DNA from: Pyrinomonadaceae bacterium
GTDB taxonomy: Bacteria > Acidobacteriota > Blastocatellia > Pyrinomonadales > Pyrinomonadaceae
Reading direction: 5' to 3'
Assembly (NCBI GenBank): GCA_021228405.1
Contig: JAJQRF010000001.1
Coordinates: forward strand, 1,006,515 to 1,070,514
DNA: 64,000 nucleotides
Shown here: positions 2,286 through 9,723 of the stretch, piece after piece
How the letters are laid out: each line of letters begins with the position of its first letter
Position numbering within the stretch: the first letter of the stretch is position 1
Translations under genes and position numbers: made by a program
The notes under the pieces: generated by a model
What the model was told of the DNA's origin: nothing
The model's database searches: none
Seen by the model: only the letters and a program-made list of their open reading frames with translations

Positions 2286-2382
2286 TTTGAACGCGGATTT
2301 GGCGAATTAGGCGGAAAAAACAGATCATTGACTGATTTATCCGTAATTATTCGCTTAATCTGCCAAATCTGCGTTCAAAATT
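2286..2382. repeat. palindromic MITE/REP-like element, family C (TTTGAACGCGGATTTGGCGAAT...GCCAAATCTGCGTTCAAAA)
   Basis: Long imperfect inverted repeat in the divergent ALDH/lrp intergenic region. Full or half copies recur at about 11808, 15550, 19449, 26800, 45129 and 53322. Confidence 0.7.
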
Positions 2383-2517
2383 TTGACAGCTTTTTTATTT
2401 TTCAGTTTGAACGGAAATTCCAACTAAATATCTGCAAAGATAGCACATTTTCGCGCCGATATGAATAAACATCGGCATCGTTCGCAATCGCCTTACTTTT
2501 ACCGAACAAAGAAAGGC

Positions 2518-2546
2518 TTGACAAACGTTTTACCGAACATTATTCT
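2518..2546 (+). promoter_or_regulatory. putative sigma70-type promoter for the Lrp/AsnC gene, with flanking direct repeats TTTTACCGAACA
   Basis: TTGACA at about 2518-2523, a 17-bp spacer, then TATTCT, ending about 25 bp before the ATG at 2571. The 12-mer TTTTACCGAACA occurs twice (about 2494 and 2527), bracketing the -35 box. Confidence 0.3.
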
Positions 2547-2570
2547 GGTAAAGTAGTTTTTGAGAGAACA

Positions 2571-3035
2571 ATGGACAATATTGACAAGGAAATTCTAAAC
2601 CTTCTTCAGCAGGATGCACGCGTTGCCAACGCAGAAATTGCACGTCAGGTCGGGCTTGCGCCTTCGGCAGTTCTGGAACGCGTTAAGAAGCTGGAAGAAC
2701 GCGGCATCATCAAGGGGTTTGAAACAAAACTCGATGCGGCACAACTCGATTTCGGGTTGACGGCTTTTATTGCCGTTCGGACGCACGAATGTTGTTATGA
2801 AACGGATAAATTTTTGACGGAAATTCCCGAAGTTTTGGAAGTTCACGACGTAGCGGGCGAAGATTCATATCTTTTAAAGGTGCGTGTCAAAGACACGGAA
2901 CATCTTTCAAAGCTTATGCGCGGAAGTTTGAAAAACGTGCCGAACGTGGCTTCGACCAAGACCACGATCGTTTTGCAGACGATCAAGGAAACGACCGCTT
3001 TGCCGATCAAAAATACGGAAGAAAAAAAGAAGTGA
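2571..3035 (+). CDS. Lrp/AsnC family transcriptional regulator
   Basis: 154 aa. N-terminal HTH (ILNLLQQDARVANAEIARQVGLAPSAVLERVKKLEERGII) plus a C-terminal RAM/AsnC_trans-type domain. Divergent from the ALDH gene. Confidence 0.9.
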   Translation: MDNIDKEILNLLQQDARVANAEIARQVGLAPSAVLERVKKLEERGIIKGFETKLDAAQLDFGLTAFIAVRTHECCYETDKFLTEIPEVLEVHDVAGEDSYLLKVRVKDTEHLSKLMRGSLKNVPNVASTKTTIVLQTIKETTALPIKNTEEKKK

Positions 3036-3062
3036 TTTTCTGATTTAGAAAAAGGGGGAGAA

Positions 3063-4052
3063 ATGCAAAAGACTGATTTATTAAAAACTCAAAAGAGCAA
3101 TATCGTTTTGTTAATTGCGGCATTTGCGGCAGTTTACATTCTTTGGGGTTCGACCTATCTCGCGATCAAATATGCGATCGACACCTTGCCGCCGTTTCTG
3201 ATGGCGGGCACGCGGTTCGTCGTTGCGGGCGGCATTTTGATGCTCTGGGCGCGCTTTTCAAAGGATTACGAACCGCCGAAAGCGGCGCACTGGAAAACGA
3301 GCTTCATCGTCGGAACGCTCTTGCTTTTGGGCGGAAACGGCGGCGTTGTTTTTGCGGAACATTATATTTCTTCGAGCCTTGCCGCGCTTCTCGTGGCGAC
3401 CGAACCGTTCTGGATCGTGCTTTTAAGCTGGCTCTGGCTGAAAGGTTCGCGCCCGAATCTGAAAACCATTGCAGGAATTGCGGTCGGATTTTTCGGCGTT
3501 TGGCTTTTGCTTAACGGGCAGCACGCCTCGACCGATCCGAATGCGAACCCGATGCAGTTTTTCGGCGCGATCGCGGTAATTTTAGCGGCTCTCAGTTGGG
3601 CGTTCGGCTCGATCTACGGGCTTCGTTCGCCGGTTCCGAAGTCGGCGATTTTAACGTCGGGAATGCAGATGTTTGCGGGCGGTTTGGTTTTGTATTTCGT
3701 CAGTTTGATAACGGGTGAATTTTCGAGATTCGACGTTTCAAAAGTTTCAAATGAATCGTTACTGGGTTTGGGTTATCTGATAATTGCGGGTTCGCTGATC
3801 GGATTTACGGCATACAGTTGGCTTTTGAAAAACGCGAATCCGGCGATGGTTTCGACGTATGCCTACGTCAACCCGATCGTCGCCGTCTTTCTCGGCTGGC
3901 TCATCGCGGGCGAAACTTTTACGACGCAAATGCTCATCGGCGCGGGCGTGATCGTCGGTTCGGTCGTGCTCATAACGGCGCGTGATAACGATAAAAACAA
4001 AGGCGAAGAATTCCAGCTTCCCGAAAGCGAATGCCGCACGGCTTCGGCATAA
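3063..4052 (+). CDS. EamA/DMT-superfamily transporter (RhaT-like)
   Basis: 329 aa with about 10 predicted TM segments and two EamA-like halves. A good SD (AAAGGGGGAG) precedes the ATG. Confidence 0.85.
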   Translation: MQKTDLLKTQKSNIVLLIAAFAAVYILWGSTYLAIKYAIDTLPPFLMAGTRFVVAGGILMLWARFSKDYEPPKAAHWKTSFIVGTLLLLGGNGGVVFAEHYISSSLAALLVATEPFWIVLLSWLWLKGSRPNLKTIAGIAVGFFGVWLLLNGQHASTDPNANPMQFFGAIAVILAALSWAFGSIYGLRSPVPKSAILTSGMQMFAGGLVLYFVSLITGEFSRFDVSKVSNESLLGLGYLIIAGSLIGFTAYSWLLKNANPAMVSTYAYVNPIVAVFLGWLIAGETFTTQMLIGAGVIVGSVVLITARDNDKNKGEEFQLPESECRTASA

Positions 4053-4180: not shown

Positions 4181-4636
4181 CTAAATAAACCTCTGCAAAC
4201 GCTGAGTCATCATTTCTTTTGAACCTGCGCCGACGATGCGGTCAACTTCTTTGCCGTCCTTAAAAATTATCAGCGTCGGAATGCTCTGCACCCGAAAAAG
4301 GCTTGACGTGGCAGGATTTTTGTCAACGTCGAGCTTTCCGATCTTCGCTTTTCCCGCCATTTCTTTTGCCAATACTTCGATAATCGGTGCGACAACGCGG
4401 CACGGACCGCACCAAGCCGCCCAAAAATCGACCAGAACCGGAAGTTTCGATTTGCCGACCTCATCTGCAAAATTGCCGTCGGTAATCACGACCGGCGCGG
4501 CGGAAACGGTCAGCGGCAATTTGCATTTACCGCAAACCGCCTGTTTATTCGCTTCAAACGAAACGCGATTCTTCGCACCGCAATTTCCGCAAGTAATAAT
4601 CTGTGTCGAATCATTCATAACTGCCCTCAAATTCAA
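4181..4636 (-). CDS. trxC: thioredoxin 2 (N-terminal zinc-finger thioredoxin)
   Basis: N-terminal CGNCGAKNRV...CGKCKLPL zinc-binding motif followed by the WCGPC active site, matching the E. coli Trx2 architecture. The true start may be the internal MNDSTQ. Confidence 0.85.
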   Translation of the reverse strand: MNLRAVMNDSTQIITCGNCGAKNRVSFEANKQAVCGKCKLPLTVSAAPVVITDGNFADEVGKSKLPVLVDFWAAWCGPCRVVAPIIEVLAKEMAGKAKIGKLDVDKNPATSSLFRVQSIPTLIIFKDGKEVDRIVGAGSKEMMTQRLQRFI

Positions 4637-4639
4637 TCA

Positions 4640-5057
4640 AAATCGTCTGCACAAATGCCGAAAACGAATCCGGCATCCACAAAACAATCTTAACGCATCG
4701 GCAAACCGTCTGCACCAATCGGCAAGTCATCTGCACTCATCGGCAAACCAACTTTACACATCGGCAAACGGTCTGAACGCATCGGCGAAGCATCTCGACA
4801 CGTCGGCAAACCGTCTTCACACGTCGGCAAACGATTTGAGCGCGTCGGCAAGTCATCTCAACACATCGGCAAATCATCTCAACACGTCGGCAAATCATCT
4901 GCATACATCGGCAACGAGTCTGCACACATCGGCAAGAAACCTGCACACGTCGGCAAAAACTTTTAACTCGTCGGTTGAAAGTCTGCACACATCGGTTAGA
5001 ACTTTATACAAACCCGCCGTTATTCTGCACACATCGGTTAAGAATATTCAAAAACAA
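4640..5057. repeat. tandem array 1: about 19 copies of a 21-bp unit C(A/G)TCGGCAA-N4/5-TCTGCACA
   Basis: Read directly. Units such as catcggcaaaccgtctgcaca and cgtcggcaagtcatctcaaca repeat head-to-tail. The 4-5 nt centre varies while the flanks are conserved. It sits immediately upstream of the trxC start. Confidence 0.85.
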
Positions 5058-5516: not shown

Positions 5517-5957
5517 TCAATCACAGATAAAACCTAAATAAAGATTTTTTTCAATAGCTTGATTAAAGGAGTAAGTTAATTTCCTTATGGTTAAGGATGC
5601 GCTTTCGGAACTAACTAATGCTTGTAATTCTTCACATTCGACTAAAAACTCTTTTGCTTCGGATGGACTGAAAAAATAATCTTCATAGTCATAATAATCT
5701 TTTCCAAACCATTTAAAGCGAGGGAAATGCTCTTTGAATAAATTCAATCTATATTGAATCTTTTCCATAGAATCAACTTTTTTTGGATCGACGAAGATTT
5801 CTTTTGTTAATAACACGTCCGCTCGAATTGCATCAAAGTTTGAGCTATCAACGCTTACGGTTAAGTTCTCAACAAAATTATCGTCAAAAACGCTTGGTGA
5901 GGTTAGAAGCATCAAATCTAAAGTTCCGTTTCCATATTTACCAAATATATCTTGCAT
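5517..5957 (-). CDS. hypothetical protein (AT-rich island gene), start 2 nt after the alaS stop
   Basis: 146-aa ORF whose ATG follows the alaS TAA by 2 nt (TAATAATG). AT-rich, with no recognisable family. Confidence 0.4.
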   Translation of the reverse strand: MQDIFGKYGNGTLDLMLLTSPSVFDDNFVENLTVSVDSSNFDAIRADVLLTKEIFVDPKKVDSMEKIQYRLNLFKEHFPRFKWFGKDYYDYEDYFFSPSEAKEFLVECEELQALVSSESASLTIRKLTYSFNQAIEKNLYLGFICD

Positions 5958-5959
5958 TA

Positions 5960-8074
5960 TTAACTCAACATCTTTTCAATCACGCCGTAGCTTGCTGCGA
6001 GTGCGTCGTTTAATTTGCTTGCGTCGGTTCCGCCGCCTTCCGCCATATCGGGTTTGCCGCCGCCGCGCCCTGACACGATCGGGGCGATTTCCTGCACGAT
6101 CTTTCCGGCTTTTACTTTGTCGGTCAGATCGTCGGAAACGCGCACGATGAACGAAACTTTCTCGTCTTCGGTTCTTGCAAGAATCACCACGCCCGATTTC
6201 TGTTTCGACATCAGCGTGTCCGACAAATGCCGCATCCCGCCTTTGTCCAAACCGTCAACGATCTTCGCGATGACCTTCACGCCCGCAACGTCCTTCGCCT
6301 CGCCGCCGTTCGACGATGCGCCGCCGATCGCGCCCGTCGCGATCTTCATTTTCAGCTCGTCAATTTCCTTGCGCGTGCGTTTCAATTCTTCCTGCAATCT
6401 TTCGATCGCGTTCGGCAGATTGTCGCGCTGAGTTTTGAGAACGTTCAGCGAATCGGCGATCAACTTTTCGTCTTCGCGGAAACGCTCGAACGCATCGATG
6501 CCCGTAATTGCGCGGATTCGGCGCACGCCCGAAGCGACCGCTTCATCGCTCACGATCTTGAACGAACCGATGTCGCCCGTGGCGCGGACGTGCGTTCCGC
6601 CGCAGAGTTCCTTTGAAAAAGTGCCGCCGCCAATCGACAAAACGCGCACCTGCGAACCGTATTTTTCGCCGAAAAGTGCCATCGCGCCCGAACGCATCGC
6701 GTCTTCGATAGACATCAGATCGGTATTGACGGGATCGTTTTTCAAAATCTCGCGGTTGACCAAATCTTCGATTTCCTGCAATTCGGTTTCGGAAATCGGC
6801 TGATAATGCGTGAAATCGAAGCGCAGATAATTGGGCGCAACGACCGAACCGGCTTGTTTGACGTGCGTTCCGAGAACTTCCTTAAGCGCGGCGTGAACGA
6901 GATGCGTCGCCGTATGATTACGCCGTGTCGCATCGCGCTTGGCAACATCGACCGTCGCCGTCACCGTATCGCCGACACGAACCGCTCCCTTTTCAACCTT
7001 CGATTTATGCAGAACAATGCCCGCAATCGGTGCGAACGTATCGTAAACTTTAGTTTGCGAATTAGCATTATAAATCACGCCGACATCGCCGACCTGTCCG
7101 CCCGATTCGGCATAAAACGGCGTTTCATCCAAAACAATCAAACCCTCATCGCCTTCGCCGAGTTCTTCAACGCGGCTATCATTTTTCACCAGAGCGATAA
7201 CCTTTGCATCTTCAACCTCGGTTTTTTCGTAGCCGTGAAAATTCGAGCGAACGGACGTTCTTTCCAAAGCCGTGTAAATCGGATTGATTTTGTCGGCTTG
7301 TTTGGTTTTGCCGATTTCGCTTTGTTTTTGAAGATCAGATATTGCCTGGTCAAAATTCCGATCAAATGACTCTTCGGAAAATACTATTCCGTTCTGTTCT
7401 AATATAACTCTTATCAAATCTTTAGGTGTTCCGTATGTATCGTAAAGTTTCGCTAAATTATCTATTAAATTTAAGTGATTCAATGGCTCTGAAATGAGAT
7501 AAGCCCAAAAAGAACGAAAAGTTTCATTTATGGATTTATAATCATCTTCATAATTTGGAGAAAGGCTTTCATCTTCAAAGTATCTTCGCTCCCAAAAGCT
7601 TCGAAAGTCAGCAATGTCAGAAACATTTATTTTAGAAACATCGAAATTCTTAACTTCAAGAGATGGATAATGTTTATATAATTTATCTACTGCTTGATTT
7701 TGAGTTTCAGCAAAGAATTTATTTATTTCTTCATTAAGTCTCTTCAAACCGACCGTTAAAGTCGCGCCGAATCTTTCTTCTTCAAGACGCACCATTTTGC
7801 CGATGAAATCGCGTTGGATTTCGAGTTCGGGATAAGCGTCGTTCATTTGTTCGACGACGAAATCGCAGACTTTGTAGAAGAATAAATCCCTAAAACCGAG
7901 ATGCTCGCGCCCGTGATAGATGGCTCGGCGCATAATCTTCCGCAACACGTAATTTCTGCCTTCGTTGCCCGGCAAAATCCCGTCCGCAATTGCAAACGCG
8001 GTCGAACGCGCGTGATCGGCAATCACGCGGCAGGCAAATTGTTTCTGTTCATCAAAATTTTCGTAAACGCTCAT
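5960..8074 (-). CDS. alaS: alanine--tRNA ligase, C-terminal fragment (tRNA-recognition, editing and C-Ala domains); the gene is split by an IS200-like insertion
   Basis: 704 aa beginning MSVYENFDEQKQFACRVIADHARSTAFAIADG. It aligns to E. coli AlaRS from just upstream of RVIADH onward, and carries the editing-domain motifs HTATHLVHAAL and CGGTHV plus a C-terminal GGGKPDMAEGGG DHHA1-like region. Confidence 0.85.
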   Translation of the reverse strand: MSVYENFDEQKQFACRVIADHARSTAFAIADGILPGNEGRNYVLRKIMRRAIYHGREHLGFRDLFFYKVCDFVVEQMNDAYPELEIQRDFIGKMVRLEEERFGATLTVGLKRLNEEINKFFAETQNQAVDKLYKHYPSLEVKNFDVSKINVSDIADFRSFWERRYFEDESLSPNYEDDYKSINETFRSFWAYLISEPLNHLNLIDNLAKLYDTYGTPKDLIRVILEQNGIVFSEESFDRNFDQAISDLQKQSEIGKTKQADKINPIYTALERTSVRSNFHGYEKTEVEDAKVIALVKNDSRVEELGEGDEGLIVLDETPFYAESGGQVGDVGVIYNANSQTKVYDTFAPIAGIVLHKSKVEKGAVRVGDTVTATVDVAKRDATRRNHTATHLVHAALKEVLGTHVKQAGSVVAPNYLRFDFTHYQPISETELQEIEDLVNREILKNDPVNTDLMSIEDAMRSGAMALFGEKYGSQVRVLSIGGGTFSKELCGGTHVRATGDIGSFKIVSDEAVASGVRRIRAITGIDAFERFREDEKLIADSLNVLKTQRDNLPNAIERLQEELKRTRKEIDELKMKIATGAIGGASSNGGEAKDVAGVKVIAKIVDGLDKGGMRHLSDTLMSKQKSGVVILARTEDEKVSFIVRVSDDLTDKVKAGKIVQEIAPIVSGRGGGKPDMAEGGGTDASKLNDALAASYGVIEKMLS

Positions 8075-8192
8075 AAAAATCTATACATTCAATAAAATCA
8101 ATCGCCGGCGGCGATTCTTTCGTTAGCGGCAGGTTGGCAAACCTGCCGTCGAATAAGGTTAAATTAATTTACGCTGAAAGCGTTGCATTCAT

Positions 8193-8684
8193 TTAATCTA
8201 AAAAATATTTTTCGTCAAAATCCATTTCATACCGTTGTAAAAACTTCCGATATTCATCATCGAAACTTTCGGTTTTGTGATGTTCTTTTTGATTGGCAAT
8301 GTATTTTTTGACAATTTCAATTTGTAATTTACTCACTGAAAATGCCCCGAAACCGCTTTGCCATTGAAAACCGTCAAATACAGAGTCTTTTTGTTTTATC
8401 CACAAAGAACTTGCTCTCTTAACTTCTCGGATCAAATCGCTCAAAGCTATCTTTTTCGACTGCAAAATAAGTAAATGAACGTGATTTTCCGTTCCGTTTG
8501 CAGCTAACAATACTGATTCGTGTTTCCGCAAAATTCCGCCGATATATGCGAAAAGTTCTTTCTCAATTTCCGGCGCAATCAGGTTTTCACGATTTTTAGT
8601 TGAAAAAACAACGTGAATTATTATTTCGACTAAAGTTTGCGCCATAATTTGGATTCCTAAAATACAATACCTTCGGCATTGCAA
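8193..8684 (-). CDS. tnpA: IS200/IS605-family Y1 (HuH) transposase TnpA, or a RAYT-like relative
   Basis: 163 aa. HuH motif HVHLLI, and a C-terminal catalytic tyrosine in the context KKYIANQKEHH, which is typical of IS200 TnpA. Confidence 0.85.
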   Translation of the reverse strand: MQCRRYCILGIQIMAQTLVEIIIHVVFSTKNRENLIAPEIEKELFAYIGGILRKHESVLLAANGTENHVHLLILQSKKIALSDLIREVKRASSLWIKQKDSVFDGFQWQSGFGAFSVSKLQIEIVKKYIANQKEHHKTESFDDEYRKFLQRYEMDFDEKYFLD

Positions 8685-8747
8685 AAATAATTTTCAATTC
8701 GGCAGGTTTGACAACCTGCCGCTAACAAAAGTTTCGCCGTCGGCGAA

Positions 8748-8888
8748 TTTTTAACAATCAACATCCTCGAAACGTCGCTTTTTTGATGAATCAATCTCAG
8801 AAATCTCTTTCGCACTCATCAAATCGATGCTCAATTCCCAAAGCTGTTCCATCACTTTCAGACGATCCGTGATCGCTTCGGGCGACAT
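8748..8888 (-). CDS. small ORF (46 codons) inside the inserted element, starting 1 nt after the alaS-N stop
   Basis: MSPEAITDRLKVMEQLWELSIDLMSAKEISEIDSSKKRRFEDVDC, with the TGA-T-ATG arrangement. It is below the track's 60-aa cut-off. No family recognised; it may be non-coding leader. Confidence 0.2.
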
Positions 8889-8889
8889 A

Positions 8890-9723
8890 TCAACTTTCAT
8901 TTTTCTGTGATAATTGCGCCGAAAATTCGACGATCGGCATCAGCAAATCCGTGTCGTAATTCGTTTTTACGCCCTGCAGAACCGCCGTCATCCGCTCCAA
9001 GCCTGCGCCGGTATCCACCGACGGTGCGGGCAAAGGTTTGAGTTCAAAAACGCCTTTTTCCACTTCGCTGCGCTCGAACTGCATAAAGACGAGATTCCAG
9101 ATTTCCATCGTCGTGTCGCCTTCGCCGTTGACCCATTTCGGGTGATTTTTTTCGGGGTTGTCGGGTTCTTCGCCCATATAATAATGGATTTCCGAACACG
9201 GTCCGCACGGTCCCGTGTCGCCCATCTGCCAGAAGTTGTCCTTGCGTCCGAAACCTAAAATGCGTTCGGGTTTCGCGCCGACCTTTTCCCAGAGCGCACG
9301 CGCTTCGTCGTCGGCAGGAACTTCCGCGTCACCTTCAAAAACCGAAAACCACAGACGCGATTCTTCGAGTTTTAATTCATTGACGAGAAAATCCCAAGCA
9401 AAACGAATCGCGTCCTCCTTGAAATAATCGCCGAAACTGAAATTGCCGAGCATTTCAAAAAACGTGTGATGCCGGGCAGTTTTCCCGACTTCATCGAGAT
9501 CGTTGTGCTTTCCGCCCGCGCGGATACATTTTTGCGAACTGACGGCGCGGTTGTAATCGCGTTTTTCCACGCCCGTGAAAACATCCTTGAATTGATTCAT
9601 TCCCGCATTGGTAAAGAGCAAGGTCGGGTCGTTTGCGGGCAAAAGCGGTGATGAATGGACGATCTTGTGTCCGTTGCGTTCAAAATATTCTAAAAATTTA
9701 CGTCTGATTTCGTTTCCGGTCAT
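8890..9723 (-). CDS. alaS: alanine--tRNA ligase, N-terminal fragment (aminoacylation domain)
   Basis: 277 aa starting [22 protein letters not shown], with the class II motifs [23 protein letters not shown] and [13 protein letters not shown]. It ends at a TGA directly at the insertion junction. Confidence 0.85.

Follow-up and report, generated by a model that had tools for sequence, protein, structure and literature searches.

A split alaS gene with mobile cargo in its gap, probably encoding a two-subunit alanyl-tRNA synthetase, in Pyrinomonadaceae

The heterodimeric split leucyl-tRNA synthetase (LeuRS) of Aquifex aeolicus and artificially split aminoacyl-tRNA synthetases (aaRSs) consist of two fragments that assemble non-covalently, and to our knowledge neither mobile cargo nor allelic polymorphism has been described for any of these enzymes. 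Alanyl-tRNA synthetase (AlaRS, encoded by alaS) was reported in 2023 to be the one synthetase whose prototype single-chain architecture is kept throughout biology, with Nanoarchaeum equitans and the Nanoarchaeota as the lone exception (PMC10036535); in N. equitans, efficient G3:U70-specific charging requires both subunits, i.e., alpha (NEQ547) and beta (NEQ211) (PMC11392972). A gene in pieces is also found in phage Aeh1, where nrdA is interrupted by mobE, a homing endonuclease gene, where its function is kept by non-covalent assembly of the fragments, without splicing, and where the insertion creates short terminal tails (PMC3045599). Here we report on a stretch of 64,000 nucleotides (hereafter "the window") of contig JAJQRF010000001.1 from a Pyrinomonadaceae bacterium (NCBI GenBank assembly GCA_021228405.1), in which alaS is present as two open reading frames (ORFs), designated N-half and C-half. 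Very probably, these ORFs represent a functional two-subunit AlaRS with separately translated halves, which would have arisen by an old and widespread split. No description of a split bacterial AlaRS was found in the literature searched.

The two ORFs are located on the same strand, 815 nt apart, and divide the enzyme cleanly. The N-half matches profile positions 1-260 of Pfam tRNA-synt_2c (E 3.7e-114) and ends with ...SQKNES-TGA, while the C-half starts with MSVYENFDEQKQFACRVIADH, takes up the same profile from position 265 and carries tRNA_SAD and DHHA1 in addition. In an alignment with Escherichia coli AlaRS (PDB 3HXU), the N-half corresponds to residues 5-269 and the C-half begins at approx. 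residue 279, with fewer than 10 residues unaccounted for between them; the break thus coincides with the boundary of the catalytic and recognition domains (E. coli residues ~270-278). Comparisons with Pfam, 3HXU and full-length relatives all indicate that the combined halves make up a full-length enzyme, without overlap or major loss. As the residues that read the G3:U70 pair, i.e., Asn303 and Asp400, belong to the tRNA-recognition domain (PMC10036535), and as this domain is in the C-half, the corresponding Asn and Asp are assigned to the C-half. These analyses bear out much of the initial annotation, made from the letters of the window alone, which had placed two same-strand alaS ORFs around an 815-nt gap (coordinates, domains and motifs all agree) and had noted that almost no coding sequence is lost, that the break falls between the catalytic and tRNA-recognition regions and that the C-fragment has its own ATG, a start that is conserved across split loci. 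An assembly error at the junctions, which had also been considered, is excluded, because an independent Logan assembly shows an identical arrangement and dozens of relatives have the same break. Both the C-half and the transposase-like protein encoded in the gap are on record in NCBI, on a 1.19-Mb contig of a Pyrinomonadaceae metagenome-assembled genome (MAG). A scan of a genome collection with the N-half yielded five Blastocatellia loci, its matches being swamped by universally conserved AlaRS motifs.

The same break was found in well over 100 related Pyrinomonadaceae/Blastocatellia sequences (relatives' loci and proteins are designated L### and P####, respectively). The 120 closest homologues listed for the N-half are 81-95% identical to it, nearly all have 272-282 aa, and they are from Pyrinomonadaceae/Blastocatellia MAGs. 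Among the best 120 homologues listed for the C-half, 62 are standalone proteins (611-762 aa) and 58 are full-length; a split-type FACRVIADH signature is present near the start of 57 of the 62 standalone proteins, most of which begin with M[SG]xYENFDEQKQFACRVIADH. A metagenome scan with a degenerate DNA pattern for QFACRVIADHA yielded 120 loci; in approx. 117 of these a stop followed by a conserved ATG is located at exactly the same position, and three loci are fused. The C-half start M-[SGAT]-x-Y is kept in approx. 118 split loci.

Pairwise comparisons with relatives (Nei-Gojobori method; dS ranging from 0.7 to saturation) gave a dN/dS of 0.07-0.18 when N-halves were compared and of 0.15-0.24 when C-halves were compared; both halves are thus under purifying selection. 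Moreover, many genomes have the two halves unlinked. In four loci, i.e., L002 (a 4.15-Mb contig), L003, L006 and L085, the last of which is the closest relative (95% identical), the 3-10 kb that follow the N-half downstream contain no C-half, and 24 C-half loci had at least 3 kb of upstream sequence without an N-half. Cis-splicing, bypassing and read-through are therefore ruled out as a general solution for the split. Overall, the split is old and widespread across the clade, and is not a lesion caused by the element that now occupies the gap in the window. In one long-read assembly (L087, positions 7470-9623) the C-half is broken further, into ORFs of 192 and 455 aa, and a PemK gene is interrupted; as both genes are intact in the sister contig L088, these breaks probably represent sequencing frameshifts or a decaying copy.

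Compared to the split AlaRS of Nanoarchaeota (PMC11392972, PMC10036535), the arrangement described here is similar in that it involves two separately translated genes, which can be far apart in the genome. The nanoarchaeal break, on the other hand, is located at approx. E. coli residue 368, inside the tRNA-recognition domain, and because the break positions differ, the split in Pyrinomonadaceae is independent of the nanoarchaeal event. The hosts also differ (a reduced archaeal symbiont as compared to a free-living soil bacterial clade), as does the presence, in the latter, of mobile cargo in the gap and of coexisting split and unsplit alleles. The Aeh1 nrdA/mobE arrangement (PMC3045599) shares with the window an essential gene in two ORFs, a selfish gene between them, short new terminal tails and presumably non-covalent assembly of the products. 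Conversely, no homing endonuclease is recognisable here, where the cargo consists of toxin-antitoxin pairs, a nucleotidyltransferase-like gene and a gene resembling those for REP-associated tyrosine transposases (RAYT-like gene); in addition, the split is old and resides in a bacterial chromosome, and in many lineages its halves are no longer linked. Functionally, the nanoarchaeal split AlaRS is the closest analogue; in evolutionary terms, the closest one is found among genes in pieces such as Aeh1 nrdA. The split LeuRS and the artificially split aaRSs differ in enzyme class and split position.

A functional two-piece AlaRS had been one of three readings offered by the initial annotation, and it is the one that the conserved break, the selection on both halves and their separation in many genomes strongly support at the sequence level. 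Under this reading, the N-half would supply motifs 1-3 for formation of Ala-AMP and for transfer, and the two halves would be translated apart and then associate non-covalently into an active enzyme. Split-specific residues at the new N-terminus of the C-half may offset the lost covalent link. The gap acts like an intergenic safe site that gathers selfish cargo on the same strand, and the junction, together with the cargo and approx. 20 codons on each side, appears to be swapped among relatives by homologous recombination. If this is true, a large and abundant free-living soil lineage relies on a two-gene AlaRS whose break is at a different, cleaner domain boundary, and provides a natural system for studying the coupling between catalysis on one chain and G3:U70 recognition, editing and C-Ala on the other. 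As annotation pipelines label the halves "alanine--tRNA ligase-related protein", genome completeness and marker-gene tools may miscount alaS.

Split and canonical forms occupy the same chromosomal locus. Canonical alaS genes (L005, L007, L008) and split N-halves (L002, L003, L004, L006) are all located downstream of truB-recX. The most informative pair of alleles comprises L212, which is split and whose gap holds a BrnT toxin pair, and L214, a canonical 970-aa allele from an Aridibacter MAG; both the upstream and the downstream neighbour genes are common to the two. Their alaS DNA is 88-97% identical except for two patches. The first comprises approx. 25 codons on either side of the junction (59-65% identity), and the confinement of the divergence to the surroundings of the junction points to the exchange of a junction cassette by recombination. 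The other patch of strong divergence is a hypervariable insertion in the tRNA-recognition domain, the alleles otherwise being approx. 92% identical, which suggests that this insertion is a second recombining module within alaS. In alignments with the window's C-half, the insertion is missing from canonical relatives.

Across the family, the positions that discriminate between split and canonical forms fall into just two short stretches, i.e., the N-terminal 18 residues of the C-half (NFDEQKQFACRVI as compared to ESQEGFAMRVV) and the C-terminal ~12 of the N-half. Outside the junction, split and canonical forms interleave, both in a neighbour-joining (NJ) tree without bootstrap and in nearest-neighbour identities: identity reaches 84-90% in several split/canonical pairs but only approx. 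75-80% in some split/split pairs, calculated from the same conserved columns (61-80% in BLAST comparisons with the window's C-half). Vertical inheritance of the split from a single origin was considered and rejected, as split forms are not monophyletic by either the tree or the nearest-neighbour identities; recombinational exchange is therefore favoured over a single vertical split. The junction cassette appears to have been exchanged between related genomes by homologous recombination, which would be the simplest account of these patterns.

Alleles in which the halves are joined again were also found. In L104 (~2335-3300), a single ORF re-joins the halves via part of the 75-aa antitoxin-like gene of the gap, read in frame (...SETALLSERSLTEDWSTREEDQAWQH|FDEQRQFAC at the join); L104 is a natural re-fusion in which cargo sequence bridges the split. 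A family of full-length proteins (P0167, P0170, P0171, P0203, P0166 and P0237, as well as L196; DGMxFxNGKELV...SIYENFDEQKQFAC) carries a conserved linker of 25-30 aa at the exact split site, followed by the split-type signature (...DGMPFGNGKELV...SIYENFDEQKQFAC). These linker-bearing AlaRSs may represent either loop-insertion ancestors of the split or stabilised re-fusions. An origin of the long linkers of fused ("type C") proteins from known gap cargo was considered for both groups; it is true for L104 and was rejected for the DGMxFxNGKELV family. Split, canonical and re-fused alleles of an essential translation gene can hence occur in one family, and their coexistence follows from the apparent exchange of the junction, the cargo and approx. 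20 codons on each side.

The direction and the driver of this exchange are matters that we infer. Tentatively, and with appreciably less confidence than even odds would warrant, the addiction modules and the RAYT-like gene could have spread as a selfish mobile junction cassette, converting canonical alleles to split ones. The gap may then serve as a deletion-proof, always-transcribed harbour, with spread between species proceeding by homologous recombination through the highly conserved alaS flanks, with short co-conversion tracts, much as in intron or intein homing but minus the splicing; occasional deletions may re-fuse the halves via cargo fragments.

Several observations weigh against a two-subunit AlaRS of old and recombining origin. 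The list of 120 N-half homologues is skewed to short proteins, and the split is not universal among close relatives, as full-length relatives exist with N-parts up to 92% identical to the window's N-half; a uniformly split clade, as first read from the ~275-aa N-half hits, was dropped for these two reasons. At the DNA level, evidence for recombination comes from one allele pair (L212/L214), the remainder consisting of protein identity comparisons and the NJ tree without bootstrap. No other AlaRS-like sequence was found within the window, to which the check for a second intact alaS extended. At the C-half itself, a terminator-like hairpin (8100-8116), followed by GATTTTATTG, is located 26 nt upstream of the ATG, no clear Shine-Dalgarno sequence was found for this ORF, and a promoter scan revealed nothing above chance. 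The C-half is probably co-transcribed through the gap.

The alternative that survives best, although we consider it unlikely, is that the halves are accessory paralogues, i.e., a free catalytic-domain protein and an AlaX-like protein for editing and tRNA binding, with a canonical housekeeping AlaRS encoded elsewhere, as the search for a canonical alaS covered the 64 kb of the window. Free-standing AlaX editing proteins do exist, the C-half matches the AlaXM model weakly (112 bits; cut-off 300), and the NCBI name for both halves would fit related proteins. This view is difficult to reconcile with halves that are exactly complementary, without overlap or loss, and that occupy the orthologous alaS locus, where canonical alaS is their allelic counterpart (apart from the junction, nucleotide identity amounts to 88-97%). 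Furthermore, single-chain forms re-fused from split ones exist (e.g., L104), and split and canonical forms interleave in the phylogeny rather than forming two paralogue clades.

It is highly improbable that the pieces are re-joined into a single-chain AlaRS, be it through an IStron or an intron of group I or II, through a split intein or through bypassing by the ribosome. The halves are co-oriented and just 815 nt apart, and introns and inteins associated with mobile elements are known from conserved sites of essential genes (PMC2677866; PMC2814812); RNA-level removal, as in IStrons, had been put forward in the initial annotation. However, an Rfam scan found no intron family, group I or group II, in 7700-9300 at E<=10, and no intron or other RNA family at gathering score in the whole window. 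No intein halves were found either when the termini were aligned with those of full-length relatives: the N-half stops 3-8 residues past the last AlaRS-homologous helix, and the C-half opens directly in AlaRS-homologous sequence, which leaves no room for an intein. In many relatives the halves are several kb or more apart, which precludes cis-splicing there, and because the content of the gap differs from relative to relative, a shared RNA structure cannot account for re-joining.

The content of the gap was tallied in 43 loci where it was visible; the cargo is interchangeable and without exception has the orientation of alaS. In most split relatives, the RAYT-like gene is missing from the gap, which holds other cargo or is empty. 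A gene designated NT152 (weak nucleotidyltransferase/DUF6036 Pfam hits) and/or a small ORF designated ORF-X were found in approx. 16 loci, 13 of them with NT152; a 75-aa antitoxin-like ORF (AT75) with a PemK/MazF toxin in approx. 10; the RAYT-like gene with hairpin clusters in 10; and BrnT with a partner in two, including L212, where BrnT is marked by a precomputed Pfam hit. A few loci had other content or none (e.g., hairpins only in L195). Pfam and NCBIfam scans of the gap cargo revealed Y1_Tnp, PemK and weak nucleotidyltransferase hits, and no homing endonuclease of the HNH, GIY-YIG or LAGLIDADG type. Toxin-antitoxin and RAYT genes can thus lodge inside an essential translation gene.

Table 1. 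Features of the split alaS region; positions are those of the window
Feature	Position	Strand	Description
alaS N-half, alpha-like subunit, 277 aa	8890..9723	-	class II catalytic/aminoacylation domain
ORF-X, 49 aa	8751..8900	-	ATG overlaps N-half stop (ATGAAAGTTGA); orphaned partner of NT152 module
Upstream hairpin cluster	8664..8747	-	stem-loops 8733-8747, 8700-8721 and 8664-8682; -21.5 kcal/mol, z -3.46 (DNA fold)
Y1/HUH tyrosine transposase-like gene, RAYT-like, 150 aa	8193..8645	-	Pfam Y1_Tnp, E 6e-26
Downstream hairpin cluster, mirror image	8100..8183	-	stem-loops 8171-8183, 8127-8148 and 8100-8116; -23.3 kcal/mol, z -4.74
alaS C-half, beta-like subunit, 704 aa	5960..8074	-	tRNA-recognition domain, editing domain, C-Ala
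Hypervariable lineage-specific insertion, ~85 aa, C-half residues ~120-206	7454..7723	-	in tRNA-recognition domain

The gap in the window is a mosaic, consisting of the remnant of an NT152/ORF-X module and a RAYT unit (Table 1). ORF-X, which the initial annotation had missed along with the extent of the hairpin unit, has no Pfam or NCBIfam match; its N-terminal ~30 aa (M[KR]VDMSPxAVTxRLKxLxQLWEL) are kept in 15 loci, in each of which the NT152 stop is overlapped in the identical manner. The window retains ORF-X without NT152. Moreover, the last 3-4 codons of the N-half (K-N-E-S-stop), which overlap the ATG of ORF-X, match the 3' end of NT152 in L086 and L188, and it follows that a deletion has brought the NT152 tail onto the end of the alaS N-half. 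The RAYT unit (8100-8747) is located directly downstream of ORF-X and fills only part of the gap. Some of the ORF-X homologues, among those in L147, L164 and L167, share their C-terminal tail, "ALLSE..DW...E..AW", with the 75-aa ORF that accompanies PemK (L087/L088); given this common tail, the small gap proteins look modular, antitoxin-like and inter-recombined.

The transposase-like protein had been recognised from the outset as a Y1/HUH enzyme, which Pfam and NCBIfam searches confirm. It contains the motifs HVHLL and YIANQKEHH, passes the NCBIfam transpos_IS200 model (NF033573; 65.5 bits, cut-off 55) and fails the REP_Tyr_transpos model (NF047646; 18.1 bits, cut-off 80); some of its homologues are called RayT by JGI. 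The flanking repeats, initially given as 27-nt inverted repeats, are indeed inverted and hairpin-forming; their length was underestimated, the arms (8102-8148 and 8700-8746) comprising 47 nt with 89% complementarity. Each flank folds, as DNA, into three hairpins in mirrored order. The motif GGCAGGTT-N4-AACCTGCC occurs in only these two places in the 64 kb, with 0 occurrences expected by chance. Homologous hairpins were found in L102, L149, L125 and L163, with the position kept and with paired base changes. Further copies of the hairpins were found neither in the window nor, apart from those in the alaS gap, in relatives' loci totalling 0.8 Mb. In L195, the 294-nt gap holds only an array of REP-like hairpins, of the types found beside the RAYT-like gene elsewhere, and no RAYT gene; either the gene has been lost or the hairpins were deposited in trans.

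In at least 10 loci, the same alaS gap harbours orthologues of the RAYT-like protein that are 72-87% identical; their dN/dS values are 0.05-0.12, and their HUH and Tyr motifs are intact. All relatives at >=72% identity are in an alaS gap, while a 57%-identical homologue is in an unrelated context. On each of two contigs of approx. 4 Mb, whose names mark them as circular, the gene was found in a single place. As its orthologues are down to 72% identity and yet have not left the gap, with dN/dS values this low, the RAYT-like gene is an old resident under purifying selection and not a fresh insertion.

IS200/IS605 elements have subterminal hairpins that are not inverted, and lack terminal inverted repeats. 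The unit in the window resembles them in its Y1 HUH TnpA (Pfam PF01797, NCBIfam NF033573) and in having hairpins near both ends, and differs from them in that its ends are mirror-image inverted repeats of three hairpins, in the single place found per large contig and in orthologues that remain at the same site over long divergence. It shares with REPtrons and RAYTs a single-copy Y1/HUH gene, inverted hairpin repeats, apparent vertical inheritance and purifying selection; conversely, no dispersed REPs were found in the window or in the 0.8 Mb of relatives' loci, the curated model failed, and the unit sits within the gap of a split essential gene. Where the initial annotation had left the choice between an IS200-like and a REPtron-like architecture, the anatomy of the unit speaks for a REPtron/RAYT-like element and not for an active IS200, because it is single-copy, has mirrored hairpin flanks and is apparently inherited vertically. 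The RAYT-like unit is a passenger in the gap and not the agent of a recent disruption.

A recent IS200/IS605-type knock-out, with a second intact alaS sustaining the cell and the two ORFs representing decaying fragments, can be set aside as very improbable, and the claim that a tnpA element split alaS finds no support: a Y1 transposase gene with hairpin ends does separate the halves, and the search for another alaS was confined to the window, but the break is common to more than 100 diverged relatives, mostly without a RAYT-like element, both halves have dN/dS values <=0.24 with dS near saturation, the RAYT-like gene has diverged to 72% identity and is still in the gap, which also holds the remnant of an older module, N-halves are at the canonical truB-recX-alaS locus, and the halves are unlinked in many genomes.

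Two further features were observed downstream of the C-half. An ORF of 146 aa (5517-5957, minus strand) begins 2 nt past the C-half stop and probably shares a transcript with the C-half; the matching Logan contig has no Pfam family on record for it. At 4680-5001, a 21-nt unit is repeated in tandem (~13-18 copies with 65-77% matches; alternative period 63 nt); this array is flanked by a thioredoxin-like gene on the minus strand (4181..4636) and by an ORF of 104 aa, and gives rise to long repetitive ORFs on both strands.

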